DNA of 64,000 nt from Acidimicrobiaceae bacterium (GCA_030837965.1 JAUTXP010000046.1:38326-102325), one strand, 5' to 3'. Shown: positions 21,160 to 38,713, counted from the stretch's first letter. Notes: a model not told the origin generated them from the sequence alone. A program made the numbers and translations.

Positions 21160-21723
21160 TCAGCGGACAGGGGCGGCGTGCACCCCGGCCAGCACGGCGA
21201 GGATGGCCCGGGCGGCGGTCTCGGGCCCCCAGCCAGGGTCGATCACGAGGTTGGGCCGCAACGGCTCCTCGTACGGCGCCGAGACGCCAGTGAACTGTTC
21301 GAGCTCTCCCGAATGGGCCCGCCGGTAGAGTCCCTTCGGGTCGCGGCGGGCGCACTCCTGCACGGGCGTGGCGACGTGGCACTCGATGAACGGCACGCAC
21401 GCGTCGCGGTGCCTGCCGCGCACCAGCGCTCGCGCGTCCCTGTATGGGGAGACGATCGCCACGAGCGCAACAAAGCCCATCCGGGAGACCAACAGTGCGA
21501 CCTCGCCCACCCGGCGGATGTTCTCGCGGCGGTCCTCCGGCGTGAAGCCGAGGTCGGAGTTGAGGCCGTCTCGCAGCTCGTCGGCGTCCAGCCTGCACAC
21601 CGCGACCCCTTGCGAGCGGAGCCCCACCTCGACGGCACGCGCCAGTGTGGACTTGCCTGCCGCAGGCAGGCCCGTGAGCCACACGGTCGCGCCCAGTTGG
21701 TCATCCACGGGCCGGTCCGTCAT
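21160..21723 (-). CDS. cysC: Adenylyl-sulfate (APS) kinase
   Basis: 'VWLTGLPAAGKSTLA' P-loop, 'LDADELR', 'DRRENIRR', and 'PYEEP' near the C-terminus. ATG at 21723. Confidence 0.85.
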   Translation of the reverse strand: MTDRPVDDQLGATVWLTGLPAAGKSTLARAVEVGLRSQGVAVCRLDADELRDGLNSDLGFTPEDRRENIRRVGEVALLVSRMGFVALVAIVSPYRDARALVRGRHRDACVPFIECHVATPVQECARRDPKGLYRRAHSGELEQFTGVSAPYEEPLRPNLVIDPGWGPETAARAILAVLAGVHAAPVR

Positions 21724-22100
21724 GTGCCCGAGCCTTGGCGAGCTTTCCCAACGAATCCGCCCGACAGACGCCACCACGTCGAAGCGCGCCCGCCTGGCAG
21801 TTGGGGCGAGCAGTTCGCGTACGTGCTCGCGCACGCCACGGAGCCCAGCGGTTCGCTCGATGCCGTGCCGCACGGAGCCACCGGCGGCGACCCGTGCCCC
21901 GGGTTCGGGGCAGGCCACACGCGTGAGCGTCGCCTACCGCCCACGCTCGATGGACGGCAGTCGGACACACGTTGAGGCGGCCGAAGACAATCGACTCGTT
22001 CGACCGGGCAACCAGAAAGGTGCTGGGTCTCGTCATCGATTTGGCCGAGGTAGACCGGCTGGAAGCCCGTCCCCGGGACGGCGTCGCGCAACTGAACCTC

Positions 22101-22140
22101 GCCCACCGCCCACCGCCCACCGCCCACCGCCCACCGCCCC
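22101..22140. repeat. Tandem heptamer (GCCCACC) x5 plus a partial unit
   Basis: Read directly from the sequence. It lies in non-coding or decayed DNA next to the IS remnant. Confidence 0.9.
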
Positions 22141-22249
22141 CCGGCGCCGCGGGCCGGCCGTCGACGTGGACGGCGAACTTGATGGCTCGACCGAGCGGCT
22201 CACGTTTGCCTGCTGGCGCTGCCAACTTCGCTGAGAAAATCAAAGATCC

Positions 22250-23190
22250 GGCGATGCCGCACTACTCGAAGACCGCGCGGCCGAGCCAGGAGCTCACGGG
22301 CAGTTTCACCGGCGCCGCCACACCTCATCGTCCGCCCCCCTTCGGTCCCGATGAAGAGCCAGATAGTAGCGAGGCACGGCTCCGAAGAGCTTGTCGAGAC
22401 CTCGGTCACCCCGATGAAGCCCCGCCGTCGCTGATGCTGGGACTGCTCACGCCAACCTTCGATGCGCCCGACGGCCTCGAACCGTCCCGATTGCCAAGAG
22501 CAATCGGCGTCGTCAGAGTTGTGGTCGGCGACCTCGCGGAGGGGTGTCCAGTATCGCAGGCGGGCCGTTGACGCGCAGCGTGATCCTTCCGCTCTTGTCG
22601 ACGGTGTCGTGTCGCACGCGGTCGCGCCTATCGCTGCGATCACCGGGTGTTGCTTGGGTCGCCAGTGATAGGCGTCGGCAGGGGGTGCATCGATTCGGTA
22701 GCGACCGGTGCGGTCGTTCGTGGTTGCAGTAGACGGCGAAGACGTTGAGGAGGGCTTGCTGCTCGCCGATCGTGTCGGGCTCCCCGGCTCGGGCCGCGAG
22801 CGAGCGCGTGAGGGTCTGGTAGAACCGCTCGACTTTTCCGGCATGTCGTCGGGTGGTTCGGTCTGGAGCTCTTGGGCGATGCCGAGGCGACGCAGCTCGG
22901 CATCGAGGGCGTTGCGGCCGCCCTTGCCGCCGGAGAGGCGGGTGGTGAATGGCATGCCGTGCCAGTCAGCGTCGACGCGGGAGCGCCGTGCTCGGCGATG
23001 GCAGCCCAGAGTTCGTTCAGCACGATCCGCCCGGTGTACGGTGAGCCGCAACGCGTAGCGGGCGTGAGTCGAGCCAGAACAACACCTCGACACCGTTGGC
23101 GAGGGGGTAGTGGACCCGTCATTTGCGACACACCATCCAGCTTCGTCTCTCGCGAGCGTCGTTCCTCAGCATGCGCTCCTTGGCGCTGAC
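22250..23190 (-). pseudogene. IS481-like (rve integrase-core) transposase, frameshifted and 5'-truncated
   Basis: Pieces are spread over three frames: 'HARYALRLTVHR', 'AAIAEHGAPASTLT', 'GMPFTTRLSGGKGGRNALDAELRRLGIAQ', 'SRPNHPTT', 'PADAYHWRPK'. Confidence 0.7.
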
Positions 23191-36355: not shown

Positions 36356-36375
36356 GGAGGACGACGTCATGCACG

Positions 36376-36972
36376 ATGCGAGCGCGGCCCCGTGCGATGC
36401 CCCGTGAGGCCGAGTGGTTCGTGCGCTCGGACGCGCAGCTGGAGCGGTCAGTCTTGTTCGATCGACTGCCGAAGCACTCGAGGGGCGCGGAGGTCGGGGT
36501 GTGGACGGGTGAGTTCTCGGCCCAACTGCTCGCAATGGTCGAGCCGAGGGAGCTGCACCTCGTGGACCCCTGGCGGTACCGGACCGAGGACGAGTTCAAG
36601 GGCGCGAGCTACGCCGGTGGCATGGCGCGGGACCAGTCCGACATGGACCAGCTCCACGAGTTGGTCCTGACCCGTTTCGCGGGTGACCAACGCGTCCACG
36701 TGCATCGGCTGGACTCGGTGTCCGCGGCGGGTGAGTTCGCTCCCGGCTCTCTCGACTGGGTCTACCTCGACGGGGACCACCGCTACGAAACGGTGCTCGC
36801 GGATCTTCATGCCTGGCGACCGCGGATTGCTCCTGGAGGAATCTGCAGTGGAGACGACTACGGTGAAACAGGGTGGTGGGGCAACGGCGTCACAGAGGCG
36901 GTCGACCGGTTCGCCTCGGAGCTCGACGTCGCGTTAACCATCCTCGGGCACCAGTTCGTGATGCAGCTCTGA
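36376..36972 (+). CDS. Class I SAM-dependent methyltransferase (Methyltransf_24/TylF-like)
   Basis: 'EVGVWTGEFS', 'VYLDGDHRYE' and 'GGICSGDDY'. An alternative ATG is at 36397. Confidence 0.65.
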   Translation: MRARPRAMPREAEWFVRSDAQLERSVLFDRLPKHSRGAEVGVWTGEFSAQLLAMVEPRELHLVDPWRYRTEDEFKGASYAGGMARDQSDMDQLHELVLTRFAGDQRVHVHRLDSVSAAGEFAPGSLDWVYLDGDHRYETVLADLHAWRPRIAPGGICSGDDYGETGWWGNGVTEAVDRFASELDVALTILGHQFVMQL

Positions 36973-37003
36973 GGACAGCGGTGACCGCATTGGCGCTACC
37001 GCG

Positions 37004-37957
37004 ATGATCTTCGTCGGGGGCATGCCCCGTTCGGGGACGACACTGCTGACCCAACTCGTCGGCACTCACCCGGAAATCTATTCCGTGCCCGAGGAGACGC
37101 GGTTTATCGTCGACCCGGACGGCGTCGGTGAACTCCTCGAGTCGTTGACGAGCGGTTGGGCCGGACCCAGCGTCGCCGGCGTGCGAATCCAACGGTTCCG
37201 AAAGTTGATGCTCACGCACCTCGTCGATCGCGACACCGATCCGTACATTGACTTCTGCATGTACGACTATTTTGACGAGACCCTGTACAGGAACGCCGTC
37301 GAGGACTTTATCGGGCAGTTGGCCTGTTGCACGTTCGAAGGCAAGGCAGCCGCGTCGACGGAGCCGGGCCGGTACGTGCCCCGGTGGTTCCCGGAAGAGA
37401 CGCTCGTCGGGCTGGCCCGGCAATTCGTCTCAACGCTGTTCGGTGGCCAAGCCCAGTTCGACGACAAGGCGATCTGGTGCGAGAAGACGCCCCACAACCT
37501 CGTCTCGCCCTACCCGCGGAAGCTCTTTCCCGACGCCCACTTCCTGCACGCTGTCCGCGACCCACGTGATGTCGCAGCCTCGATCGCGTCCGACCAGACC
37601 GCACACGGTTCGGGTGCGCCTGGCATCTGGGGCACGGGCTCGGTCGGAGCTGCTCTCGACTGGATTCACGAGTACTGCCGGCGGTGGGAGGCGCTCGCTG
37701 CCGGCGGTCGGTTCGACGGGATCAGGATGCTGCAGGTCGACTACGAGGACCTGGTCCGGGACCCGGACGCCACGATGGCGCGGGTCTTCGCCTTCGTCGG
37801 CGTCGACCCGGTCGAACCGGACCGGTGGACCGAGCCGCTGGATGCATCGGCGATCGGCCGGCACACAACCAGCTTCTCGAAGGACGACCACGTCCTGTTC
37901 GAGGCCCGCGTGGCGCCACTCTGGCGTCGGCTATTCGCTACGGCCGACGACTCATGA
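37004..37957 (+). CDS. PAPS-dependent sulfotransferase
   Basis: 5'-PSB loop 'GMPRSGTTLL' and a 3'-PB region 'HAVRDPRDVAAS'. Confidence 0.8.
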   Translation: MIFVGGMPRSGTTLLTQLVGTHPEIYSVPEETRFIVDPDGVGELLESLTSGWAGPSVAGVRIQRFRKLMLTHLVDRDTDPYIDFCMYDYFDETLYRNAVEDFIGQLACCTFEGKAAASTEPGRYVPRWFPEETLVGLARQFVSTLFGGQAQFDDKAIWCEKTPHNLVSPYPRKLFPDAHFLHAVRDPRDVAASIASDQTAHGSGAPGIWGTGSVGAALDWIHEYCRRWEALAAGGRFDGIRMLQVDYEDLVRDPDATMARVFAFVGVDPVEPDRWTEPLDASAIGRHTTSFSKDDHVLFEARVAPLWRRLFATADDS

Positions 37958-38713
37958 GCGGTACGCGAGCACCCGCAGGCGTCGACTCAGAACCGTGAAT
38001 GGCTCACCGGCGTCACCGGTGACCTGTACCTCGGCGAAACCGGCGTCTCGAAGCCACGAGGTGATCTCCGGAACGGTGAACGCTCGGACGCTGTAGCGAC
38101 TGGTGCTGACCCCCGAGCCGACGATCGCGATGCGTTCACCGAAGTATCGACTCGTGATCGGATCGAGCGTCGTCGTGTCGAAGAGGATGTCCTCACCGAC
38201 GCGCTGGACGTCGGTCTTCGCACCACCGCCTGCGACGAGCGAAGGAATCATGCGGTATGGCGACTGGAGGTCGACGACGAGGACACCGCCGGGATCCAGG
38301 GCCCGGTGATAGGACGTCAGCACCCGCTTGTCCTCGTCGTCACCGAAATAGCCGAACGATCCGTACCAACAGATCGCCACGTCGAAGCCTCCGCGGAACG
38401 GCAGGTCGGCCAGATCCGCCTGGCAGAGTGTGATGTCGACCAACGCTTCGTCGGAGGCGCGGCGGGCGAGCTCGAGGAATCGCCGGCTGCGGTCCGCGCC
38501 GGTGACGCGCAGACCCCGCGACGCCAGGGCAACGGCGTGCCGACCGTGCCCGCACGGCGCGTCGAGCAGTCGCTGCCCGGAGCGCTCGCCGAGGAGGAGG
38601 AGGATCTCGTCGACGTCTGCACGGGTGGCTGCCGCGGTGAGGATCGGGAACTCGAAGCGCTCGTAGTCCTCCCCGAACATCGCCGCTAACGCCTGACGGT
38701 CAGGCACGTCCAT
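37952..38713 (-). CDS. Class I SAM-dependent methyltransferase
   Basis: 'LLDAPCGHGRHAVALA' motif I. ATG at 38713. Confidence 0.75.
   Translation of the reverse strand: MDVPDRQALAAMFGEDYERFEFPILTAAATRADVDEILLLLGERSGQRLLDAPCGHGRHAVALASRGLRVTGADRSRRFLELARRASDEALVDITLCQADLADLPFRGGFDVAICWYGSFGYFGDDEDKRVLTSYHRALDPGGVLVVDLQSPYRMIPSLVAGGGAKTDVQRVGEDILFDTTTLDPITSRYFGERIAIVGSGVSTSRYSVRAFTVPEITSWLRDAGFAEVQVTGDAGEPFTVLSRRLRVLAYRS

Follow-up and report, generated by a model that had tools for sequence, protein, structure and literature searches.

Streptomycin biosynthesis is encoded by clusters found in Streptomyces. Glycosyl transfer and hexosamine formation are the roles assigned, without proof, to StrF, StrG, StrH, StrS and StrT of these clusters, and to our knowledge none of the five has a proven biochemical function. 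Sugar donors such as UDP-GlcNAc are supplied by primary metabolism. A second point of reference is the fold common to the isonitrile synthases IsnA and PvcA (rhabduscin, paerucumarin) and yeast Dit1, whose known IsnA/PvcA members take Tyr or Trp as substrate together with ribulose-5-phosphate (PMC7345447).

The locus described here is a cluster of 17 genes of the str/sts (streptomycin) family, which spans positions 23,352-38,713 of a 64 kb window, the whole stretch of DNA that was analysed. The host is an uncultured Acidimicrobiaceae bacterium, the cluster proteins being 100% identical to NCBI records of an Acidimicrobiaceae MAG. From the homologies set out below, and from the chemistry that they predict, we consider it fairly probable that the locus is a biosynthetic cluster for a novel streptomycin-family aminocyclitol. 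The features of the cluster and its borders are as follows.

21160-21723, minus strand: cysC, APS kinase (PF01583 E 2e-56, full profile)
22516-22955, minus strand: IS481-family transposase remnant, frameshifted, comprising the C-terminal integrase portion; marks the left edge of the lower-GC block
23352-24284, minus strand: beta-lactamase-fold hydrolase-like gene, divergent from strB1 (PF00144 E 1e-6, 28.6 bits, cut-off 27)
24444-25481, plus strand: StrB1-type inosamine-phosphate amidinotransferase (58% identity to StrB1, PDB 1bwd, E 7e-130)
25478-26404, plus strand: StrF homologue, GT-A-like candidate glycosyltransferase (42% identity to S. griseus StrF over the full length, E 2e-74)
26397-27047, plus strand: StrG homologue, probable Fe(II)/2-oxoglutarate-type oxygenase (47% identity to StrG, E 4e-62)
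27034-28197, plus strand: PvcA/IsnA-fold protein, distant isonitrile-synthase relative (fold from AlphaFold model and Foldseek)
28194-29210, plus strand: Gfo/Idh/MocA oxidoreductase, IolG-like inositol 2-dehydrogenase, StrI counterpart (PF01408, PF22725, PF02894)
29194-30303, plus strand: StrH homologue, candidate glycosyltransferase by inherited annotation (38-41% identity to StrH, E 2e-79)
30336-31271, plus strand: APH-fold kinase, StrN counterpart (APH(9)-Ib model E 4e-9; HGDxxxxN motif read directly)
31268-32026, plus strand: AadA-like nucleotidyltransferase, distant member of the ANT(3'')/(9) family, its translation coupled to that of the preceding kinase
32048-32917, minus strand: second APH-fold kinase (PF01636 E 6e-25; HRDFHTAN motif read directly)
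32926-34236, minus strand: StsC-type cyclitol (inosose) aminotransferase (PF01041 E 1e-76)
34265-35407, plus strand: StrS homologue, NDP-sugar-type aminotransferase (48-51% identity to StrS, reciprocal)
35411-36355, plus strand: StrT homologue, aldo/keto reductase (PF00248 E 2e-37; 51-53% identity to StrT, reciprocal)
36397-36972, plus strand: methyltransferase, Methyltransf_24, weak TylF-like similarity (PF13578 E 5e-18; alternative start 36376)
37004-37957, plus strand: PAPS-type sulfotransferase, closing the strS-strT operon (PF13469 E 2e-31, PF00685 E 6e-11)
37952-38713, minus strand: class I SAM methyltransferase, Methyltransf_25/11, transcribed towards the sulfotransferase gene (PF13649 E 3e-18)
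39111-39291, minus strand: tRNA-Lys(CTT) and tRNA-His(GTG) (ARAGORN, Rfam); right border of the cluster

All the genes listed in the first-pass annotation are present where it had placed them, its StrG-like Fe/2OG-type protein, APH-fold kinases, aldo/keto reductase, PAPS-type sulfotransferase and two methyltransferases among them; the PvcA/IsnA-fold gene, the AadA-like nucleotidyltransferase, the beta-lactamase-fold gene and the border tRNA-Lys and tRNA-His had been overlooked.

Comparison with streptomycin loci was made by reciprocal searches against the Streptomyces rameus locus, which was validated as an authentic streptomycin cluster and encodes StsA, StrO, StrN, StrM, StrE, StrD, StrR, StrA, StrB1, StrF, StrG, StrH, StrI, StrK, StrS and StrT, and also against S. 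humidus, S. griseocarneus and S. griseus proteins. Eight to nine of the 17 genes are shared at 32-57% identity, with homologues of StrB1 (56-58%), StrF (42-44%), StrG (43-48%), StrH (38-41%), StrI (32-34%), StrN (32-37%), StrS (48-51%) and StrT (51-53%), and an StsC-type aminotransferase is common to both; an end-to-end match to a known cluster was not found. The orders strB1-strF-strG and strS-strT are kept, whereas strH and strI have changed places and strG is separated from strI by the inserted PvcA-fold gene. The sulfotransferase, two methyltransferases, second kinase and AadA-like nucleotidyltransferase are additional to the streptomycin complement. Conversely, homology search of the 64 kb window yielded no homologue of StrD, StrE, StrM, StrO, StrK, StrR or StrA (APH(6)), and hence no StrO- or StrK-type phosphatase; the absence of the dTDP-dihydrostreptose branch was judged from the StrD, StrE and StrM queries. 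Genes for NDP-sugar activation, regulation and transport are likewise missing from the cluster, and the earlier statement that NDP-sugar genes are missing holds for activation genes, none of which occurs among the ORFs tested across the window.

SxtG and AGAT are far more distant from the amidinotransferase in sequence than StrB1 is: the bit score is 437 for StrB1 against 209 for SxtG, and the PDB E-values for SxtG and AGAT are only 1e-57 to 1e-61. D106, H225 and C330, which we take to be the catalytic triad, are invariant, and the NCBI record names the protein scyllo-inosamine-4-phosphate amidinotransferase 1. The oxidoreductase matches the IolG model TIGR04380 (E 6e-91, 305 bits, under the 355-bit cut-off) and is reciprocal with StrI. 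Among solved structures, the StsC-type aminotransferase is closest to L-glutamine:2-deoxy-scyllo-inosose aminotransferases (5w70, E 8e-95; 2c7t, E 3e-87). It is also 41-43% identical to DegT genes adjacent to strB1 in two further loci (L035, L009), and one of these genes bears the name glutamine-scyllo-inositol aminotransferase. The kinase at 30336-31271 is reciprocal with the StrN-position kinase of streptomycin loci. The first-pass annotation had proposed an aminocyclitol cluster of the streptomycin kind with a StrB1-type amidinotransferase and a myo-inositol-dehydrogenase-like enzyme, and these four assignments support it. In the pathway that we propose, the IolG/StrI-like dehydrogenase would oxidise myo-inositol, the StsC-type aminotransferase would aminate the product, the StrN-like kinase would phosphorylate the aminated cyclitol and the StrB1-type enzyme would guanidinylate it to give at least N-amidino-scyllo-inosamine phosphate, with streptidine possible after a second round.

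The parallel that had been drawn with the streptidine branch stands for these enzymes, but homologues of StrF, StrG, StrH, StrS and StrT extend it beyond that branch and bear on whether the cyclitol is glycosylated. S. griseus StrF matches the Pfam family PF13712 'Glycosyltransferase like family' (E 1.5e-12); its homologue here has no Pfam match of its own and keeps the HDDVE and VDDV motifs. The MAG's NCBI record names the StrH homologue dTDP-dihydrostreptose-streptidine-6-phosphate dihydrostreptosyltransferase, as StrH itself is named, and a DxD-type motif, VDxDC(F/Y)V, is conserved. Profile comparison of the StrH family with solved structures, glycosyltransferases included, gave no detectable similarity, nor did comparison with StrF. 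The StrG homologue matches TIGR04324 'sporadic carbohydrate cluster 2OG-Fe(II) oxygenase' below its cut-off (E 4e-8), and the pattern WHRDxDxGH...HGN...RVSxDFR (HxD...H...R) is kept across 10 sequences. Both aminotransferases that had been called StrS/StsC-type are of the DegT family; only that at 32926-34236 is cyclitol-type, and that at 34265-35407 is sugar-type, with GDP-perosamine synthase as its best solved relative (E 1.4e-66). The earlier view that there is no clear glycosyltransferase does not hold. On the basis of protein names and family membership, a bare cyclitol appears less likely than a glycosylated product, since the protein related to StrH bears the name of the dihydrostreptosyltransferase and the one related to StrF falls in a GT-A-like family.

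The small non-glycosylated, guanidinylated, methylated and sulfated cyclitol originally predicted, on which the five homologues would act directly, is now the less likely reading and seems rather unlikely, although it has points in its favour. NDP-sugar activation genes are absent across the window, nothing detectable links StrH to known glycosyltransferases, the functions assigned to the five streptomycin proteins are unproven, and the StrS homologue could be a second cyclitol aminotransferase. Against this, that homologue is nearest to NDP-sugar aminotransferases and a separate cyclitol-type aminotransferase exists, StrF falls in its GT-A-like family, StrH has its motif and name, and primary metabolism offers sugar donors such as UDP-GlcNAc. 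We therefore favour a glycosylated aminocyclitol, in which the StrF-like and StrH-like proteins would probably attach the sugar, since StrF-, StrH-, StrS-, StrT- and StrG-like genes accompany strB1 as in streptomycin clusters; as the four dTDP-dihydrostreptose genes are absent, the donor would come from primary metabolism.

Two methyltransferases and a PAPS-dependent sulfotransferase may tailor this product, the latter by O- or N-sulfation. The sulfotransferase motifs GMPRSGTTL and RDPRD were read directly; its PDB matches are the TPST, OLS and CurM sulfotransferase domains, with weak matches to NoeE and Stf0, and homology searches found no close relative. Sulfation of the product is weakly suggested, solely by the position of this gene in the strS-strT operon. 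The APS kinase that had been placed in the cluster across an IS remnant is present, as is the remnant, but its role in the cluster is weak: cysC is at best a helper gene, possibly supplying PAPS, and probably belongs to the backbone, because its GC content (72.0%) matches the left flank (72.1%) and not the cluster (67.6%) and it lies beyond the IS481 remnant.

The PvcA/IsnA-fold enzyme may add a step missing in streptomycin producers. Only one close relative was found among 5.8 billion proteins, and an exhaustive HMM search gave 321 remote relatives. Remote relatives lie beside glycosyltransferase genes or form fusions with aldo/keto reductases. No match occurs in 80 amidinotransferase loci, and streptomycin loci have no counterpart. 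The family profile matches PvcA (3e59, E 1.7e-8), and the AlphaFold model (pLDDT 91.7) retrieves PIsnA (9dh4, E 1.7e-11) and PvcA (E 3e-10) in Foldseek. The N-terminal K...D..AE...PG...D motif region is shared with IsnA/PvcA; unlike that family, the protein falls below the Pfam PF05141 threshold, TM-scores are only 0.5-0.6 and about 60 C-terminal residues are additional. An aromatic amino-acid pathway, corresponding to the Tyr/Trp substrates of IsnA/PvcA, is absent from this locus, and the substrate is most likely an amine or sugar phosphate.

The borders raise the question of whether the locus is instead a decaying or incomplete streptomycin-type fragment, obtained by horizontal transfer beside tRNA genes and an IS element, from which no finished product would come any longer. 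The block is lower in GC than the chromosomal backbone (67.6% vs about 72%); an IS481 remnant (NCBIfam NF033577 transpos_IS481 E 2.4e-9, profile positions 227-283 of 284, spread over two frames) and tRNA genes mark its borders, with a mobile element further to the right; and dihydrostreptose genes, phosphatases, regulator and transporter are missing. The beta-lactamase-fold gene is weakly conserved, with CAGK in place of the expected SxxK, and its membership of the cluster is uncertain. However, none of the 17 ORFs is disrupted, and they show coding-type GC3 and translational coupling (overlaps of 4-17 nt, gaps of at most 41 nt), and the chain of six genes from 24444 to 30303 noted earlier overlaps successively by 4, 8, 14, 4 and 17 nt. 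Window position 22110 is also where an independent Logan contig begins; by arithmetic, that contig ends at about 39140. A second, 10.8 kb metagenome contig (L082; Logan SRR28401846_25652) keeps an eight-gene core of amidinotransferase, StrF, StrG, PvcA-fold protein, StrI, StrH, kinase and nucleotidyltransferase in identical order at 57-82% identity, and between the two all eight genes are under purifying selection (dN/dS 0.13-0.37). It has a distant beta-lactamase-fold counterpart (23% identity, CSAK) directly upstream of the amidinotransferase gene. After the nucleotidyltransferase it encodes an ABC exporter (ATPase and ABC-2 permease) where the present cluster has the second kinase and aminotransferases, and it ends there, before any region comparable to the sulfotransferase. 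Co-conservation thus extends to the core; the second half (second kinase, both aminotransferases, reductase, methyltransferases and sulfotransferase) is known from this genome alone. The low identity to Streptomyces genes points to long independent evolution rather than recent truncated transfer, and decay is improbable.

The AadA-like nucleotidyltransferase (NF010309 E 1.6e-22, 80 bits against a cut-off of 193; ANT(3'')-I E 3e-18; PF13427, PF01909), kept in the second contig at 59% identity, and the second kinase, without homologue in the streptomycin loci searched, would most simply confer self-resistance. That these two, with the other kinase, the methyltransferases and the sulfotransferase, form a non-biosynthetic resistance or modification island against exogenous aminoglycosides is very improbable, as resistance leaves no role for the amidinotransferase, the inositol dehydrogenase, the two aminotransferases or the StrF/G/H/S/T homologues, which are co-operonic with the kinases.

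Guanidinylation and sulfation are combined in other systems. Saxitoxin (SxtG/SxtN) and cylindrospermopsin (CyrA/CyrJ) pathways couple an amidinotransferase of the same superfamily (SxtG E 1e-60) with PAPS-dependent sulfation, but on polyketide-derived alkaloid scaffolds rather than a cyclitol. A further cluster, on a metagenome contig (ENA contig_12916), unites a sulfotransferase and an APH-fold kinase with a StrB1-type amidinotransferase (60%) and an StsC-type aminotransferase (43%); unlike the present locus it encodes a DHQS-like cyclase, a radical-SAM enzyme and four ordinary glycosyltransferases, has no StrF/G/H, and its Stf0-type sulfotransferase is unrelated in sequence to that described here. 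The cluster is a distant and trimmed relative of the streptomycin clusters; it lacks the genes for one of the sugars of streptomycin, has gained a sulfotransferase and an isonitrile-synthase-like enzyme, and probably makes a novel compound related to streptomycin.

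Every gene named in the first-pass annotation is present, at the coordinates given there, in our gene model, which was built for this high-GC DNA from third-position GC and start/stop overlaps and agrees with independent gene calls on a Logan contig of identical sequence. The readings of the cluster that follow are predictions from sequence. Six genes between 24444 and 30303 are chained as described previously, with overlaps of 4, 8, 14, 4 and 17 nt, and after a 32-nt gap and then a 4-nt overlap the chain continues through two further genes. The central features are:

24444-25481, + strand: StrB1-type inosamine-phosphate amidinotransferase
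25478-26404, + strand: full-length StrF homologue (E 2e-74)
27034-28197, + strand: 387-aa protein, predicted PvcA/IsnA fold
29194-30303, + strand: StrH homologue, named dihydrostreptosyltransferase in its own NCBI record, with a conserved VDxDC(F/Y)V motif

The StrB1-type assignment of the amidinotransferase is upheld by its match to the solved StrB1 structure (1bwd, E 7e-130, 58% identity), against only 1e-55 to 1e-61 for SxtG, HsvA and glycine amidinotransferase, and its Cys-His-Asp catalytic triad (D106, H225 and C330) is invariant in a 14-sequence alignment. By sequence comparison the cyclitol-forming set is complete, comprising an inositol dehydrogenase, an inosose aminotransferase and a cyclitol kinase. 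The Gfo/Idh/MocA protein, proposed to resemble myo-inositol dehydrogenase, indeed matches the IolG inositol 2-dehydrogenase model at 305 bits, a strong score although below the 355-bit cut-off, and the StrN-like kinase has 32–37% identity to its counterparts in streptomycin loci. The closest solved structures to the aminotransferase at 32926-34236 are glutamine:2-deoxy-scyllo-inosose aminotransferases (5w70, E 8e-95), and it also closely resembles the DegT genes that neighbour strB1 and carry the name glutamine-scyllo-inositol aminotransferase, which together mark it as the StsC-type cyclitol enzyme. Pfam likewise confirms the two DegT aminotransferases, two APH-fold proteins, aldo/keto reductase, two methyltransferases, sulfotransferase and APS kinase of the first-pass annotation.

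A 10.8 kb metagenome contig (Logan SRR28401846_25652, here L082) carries an eight-gene core of amidinotransferase, StrF, StrG, PvcA-fold, StrI, StrH, kinase and nucleotidyltransferase genes in the same order at 57–82% protein identity, followed by an ABC exporter. Between the two copies dN/dS is 0.13–0.37 for all eight genes, which shows purifying selection on the whole core, the PvcA-fold and nucleotidyltransferase genes among them. No second genome is known for the latter half of the cluster, and public data hold only one other copy of the cluster, a partial one. Both the window and L082 have a beta-lactamase-fold protein beside the amidinotransferase (23352-24284, − strand, and 382-1437, respectively) whose SxxK motif has Cys where the nucleophilic Ser is expected (CAGK and CSAK); these two proteins share only 23% identity compared with 57–82% for the rest of the core. 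The AadA-like nucleotidyltransferase retains the GS...DxD motif and scores 80 bits on NF010309 (cut-off 193) and 66 bits on the ANT(3'')-I model (cut-off 375); it is only a distant relative of the ANT(3'')/ANT(9) family.

The PvcA-fold gene and the sulfotransferase are the most unusual parts of the cluster. The former, previously unannotated, lies between strG and strI and overlaps both. Word-indexed searches with single-sequence and alignment queries returned only 2–3 sequences and a single relative of the 387-aa protein; an exhaustive HMM search found 321 remote relatives, several with sub-threshold DIT1_PvcA matches. On PF05141, remote relatives score 16–30 bits, the cut-off being 26.4 bits. 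The 387-aa protein has no PF05141 match even at E 5, nor a match to the NCBIfam PvcA model. A 40-sequence family profile matches PvcA (3e59) at E 1.7e-8 and an isonitrile synthase family protein at E 2e-7. The same alignment yielded a confident AlphaFold model (pLDDT 91.7, pTM 0.91), while a two-sequence input gave a useless one (pLDDT 38). Foldseek places this model closest to PIsnA (E 1.7e-11) and PvcA (E 3e-10) with TM 0.5–0.6; tyrosyl-tRNA synthetases and cyclodipeptide synthases rank much lower. The model thus predicts that the 387-aa protein shares the fold of the IsnA/PvcA isonitrile synthases. As the Pfam family threshold is missed we refrain from classing it with the isonitrile synthases, and describe it instead as a predicted enzyme built on the isonitrile-synthase fold.

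Enzymes known to have this fold link the amino group of Tyr or Trp to ribulose-5-phosphate and so produce an isonitrile, while the product of yeast Dit1 is N-formyl-tyrosine (PMC7345447). The gene upstream in our cluster encodes an Fe/2OG-like protein, the StrG orthologue, and StrG is found in streptomycin clusters too, where no PvcA-like gene exists. For the branch to which the 387-aa protein belongs, a sugar-related role is pointed to by two remote relatives that adjoin glycosyltransferase or polysaccharide genes and by the fusion of some relatives to an aldo/keto reductase. Several other contigs with remote relatives were too short or uninformative to serve as evidence of context. The wider family, with 321 remote relatives in very diverse settings, may represent an unrecognised enzyme family. 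Its members include a relative in a phage-like setting with an ERF recombinase and DNA polymerase III beta (locus L084, 6810-7889), and, on contigs L098/L099 and L100, one translationally coupled to a 769-aa double glycosyltransferase and one that has polysaccharide genes nearby and carries an aldo/keto reductase fusion. We know of no isonitrile-synthase-fold enzyme in any aminoglycoside-type pathway, and its presence in one, if real, would be new chemistry.

The claim of a PAPS-type sulfotransferase is sustained by both family profile and motifs. The protein scores 110.6 bits on PF13469 (cut-off 27) and 42.8 bits on PF00685 (cut-off 22), and its translation contains a 5'-PSB motif (PxxGTT; GMPRSGTTL, residues 6–14), whose loop aligns with TPSTs, and a 3'-PB motif (RDPxD; VRDPRDVAAS). 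It also has weak matches to the carbohydrate sulfotransferases NoeE and Stf0. Its gene comes fourth in an operon (strS-strT-methyltransferase-sulfotransferase) whose intergenic gaps are 3, 41 and 31 nt, and this position is the sole tie of the enzyme to the pathway and to the predicted sulfation of its product. Neither the protein collection nor the JGI metagenomes yielded a close relative, and a metagenome scan recovered relatives at only 26–29% identity, none of them in a related cluster. Independent pairings of a StrB1-type amidinotransferase with an unrelated sulfotransferase occur in locus L083 (ENA ERZ25039537 contig_12916) and, weakly, in L048. The L083 locus (5166-19352) is a different, uncharacterised cluster around a StrB1-type amidinotransferase with 60% identity; it encodes a DHQS-like cyclase, a radical-SAM enzyme, an StsC-type aminotransferase, an Stf0-type sulfotransferase, four glycosyltransferases and an unannotated 513-aa protein, and adjoins a serine recombinase and three tyrosine integrases. 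The APS kinase gene cysC, counted earlier towards the sulfation capacity of the cluster, is present and is a possible source of PAPS, yet it falls outside the acquired block: its GC content of 72.0% resembles that of the left chromosomal flank (72.1%) rather than the cluster (67.6%), and it lies beyond the IS481 remnant. Our literature search found no paper describing a sulfated streptidine-type metabolite, and we know of no sulfated aminocyclitol antibiotic; such a compound, if real, would again be new chemistry.

The cluster forms a lower-GC block bordered on the left by the IS remnant, which proved to be the C-terminal part, with a frameshift, of an IS481-family transposase (22516-22955, − strand), and on the right by the genes for tRNA-Lys and tRNA-His. 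Horizontal acquisition is likely. An independent short-read assembly contig of 17,031 bp (Logan contig SRR24474205_192091) runs from window position 22110 to about 39140, the end being calculated from its length, and so coincides with both borders; the assembly breaks there could reflect repeats or strain-level presence and absence of the island. At about 22100-22140 there is a tandem repeat, (CCCACCG)n. No att-type repeat of the tRNA-Lys 3' end was found near the left border, and Rfam reported three tRNAs only and no riboswitch. Beyond the right border, a mobile element (42603-54600) is followed by ordinary housekeeping genes. The features to the right of the cluster are:

39640-42786: GH38 alpha-mannosidase, just past the two tRNA genes
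42603-44663, − strand: large serine recombinase ORF, in the mobile element, its 3' end overlapping tRNA-Arg and the end of the GH38 gene
42822-42896: tRNA-Arg(TCT), in the mobile element
42914-42973 and 52385-52444: 60-nt direct repeat, 90%, in the mobile element
45766-47676: 636-aa deaminase-domain protein, in the mobile element
49651-50760: Replic_Relax (replication-relaxation) protein, in the mobile element
50737-50818 and 51548-51629: 82-nt repeat upstream of two adjacent genes of the mobile element

Mannosidostreptomycin is a known streptomycin congener, and the GH38 gene was considered as a cluster member; lying beyond the two tRNA genes, it was set aside because no related locus has a counterpart. 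To the left, the region 9102-19752 may be a locus of its own for peptide export or biosynthesis. Its genes code for an FtsX-type permease, a YncE-like beta-propeller, a C39-peptidase ABC exporter and an 867-aa protein whose C-terminus is an AMP-binding domain and whose 400-aa N-terminus has no assignment. Between this AMP-binding gene and cysC, nested inverted repeats are found at 19936-20188, with 31-nt arms (94% complementarity) enclosing 57-nt arms (70%), and the ORFs in this gap have no Pfam match.

The StrF and StrH homologues contradict the previous statement that the cluster has no clear glycosyltransferase. Streptomyces griseus StrF passes Pfam PF13712 ('glycosyltransferase like family') and its NCBI name is glycosyltransferase. 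StrH itself is not recognisable as a glycosyltransferase by sequence: no solved structure was matched in PDB sequence searches, whether the query was the protein alone or a profile of its family, Pfam gave no match and hhalign found no relation to StrF. For the StrS homologue the nearest match is a nucleotide-sugar enzyme, GDP-perosamine synthase. Given the StrF and StrH homologues, this sugar-type aminotransferase and the StrT reductase, the balance favours a glycosylated product. That NDP-sugar genes are missing was correctly noted: none of the window ORFs scanned has an NTP_transferase, epimerase or dTDP-sugar-isomerase domain, and StrD, StrE and StrM of Streptomyces rameus gave no tblastn match in the 64-kb window (StrL was not among the queries). 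As activation genes are absent, the sugar donor would come from primary metabolism. To our knowledge StrF, StrG, StrH, StrS and StrT have no proven role to date and the source of the N-methyl-L-glucosamine of streptomycin is a long-standing question; we found no paper giving functions to StrF, StrG or StrH.

The first-pass observation is largely right and its interpretation partly so. A streptomycin-family cluster with a new combination of genes, including a sulfotransferase, stands; the interpretation was mistaken on glycosyltransferases and too generous on cysC. A joint reading, which we consider improbable, is that the cluster would make a new structural class of aminocyclitol glycoside, bearing a sulfate group, in which a guanidino-inosamine is linked directly to a modified hexosamine, and that the PvcA/IsnA-fold enzyme would turn one of the amines of this compound into an isonitrile or N-formyl group, or otherwise condense it with a keto-sugar phosphate. 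If true, this enzyme would be the first of its fold to act on a cyclitol or sugar amine, and the cluster would be a natural 'dihydrostreptose-less' system in which to give StrF, G, H, S and T their functions.

The known clusters of the streptomycin type come from Streptomyces and its close relatives. A genome-collection scan with an amidinotransferase alignment gave 80 loci, against which all window proteins were then compared by tblastn, and eight loci from Streptomyces and one Nocardia stand out as sharing many window genes. One of them, the S. rameus locus, is validated as a genuine streptomycin cluster by genes recorded publicly as StrF, StrG, StrH (dTDP-dihydrostreptose-streptidine-6-phosphate dihydrostreptosyltransferase) and StrR-like, and by flanking genes for inositol monophosphatase, dTDP-sugar 3,5-epimerase, 4,6-dehydratase, nucleotidyltransferase, APH(6) kinase and alkaline phosphatase, equivalent to the StrO, M, E, D, A and K set. 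For six window genes none of the 80 loci yields a homologue at E 0.01 (those for the 387-aa protein, AadA-like nucleotidyltransferase, second kinase, Methyltransf_24 and beta-lactamase-fold proteins, and cysC), and the sulfotransferase and Methyltransf_25 genes have weak matches only, at 27–44% identity in unrelated loci. In the reverse search S. rameus proteins matched the window at 32% (StrN), 57% (StrB1), 43% (StrF), 47% (StrG), 39% (StrH), 32% (StrI), 49% (StrS) and 51% (StrT). All seven genes of the strB1-strF-strG-strH-strI and strS-strT neighbourhood are present, reciprocally, in the same order as in streptomycin loci except for a swap of strH and strI and one inserted gene. The StrR regulator, the StrA APH(6) resistance kinase and the StrK and StrO phosphatases, all present in the S. 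rameus locus, are missing from the 64-kb window by tblastn. Without the dihydrostreptose genes, streptomycin itself is an unlikely product, and identities of only 32–57% to Streptomyces genes argue against recent transfer from a known producer. At this distance the uncultured Acidimicrobiaceae lineage, an unusual host, samples a distant branch of the family. The practical interest of the cluster lies in its being a smaller natural system that keeps StrF, G, H, S and T without the dihydrostreptose genes; if these five form one sugar-forming and sugar-transfer module, it offers a simpler setting than the streptomycin loci in which to assign them.
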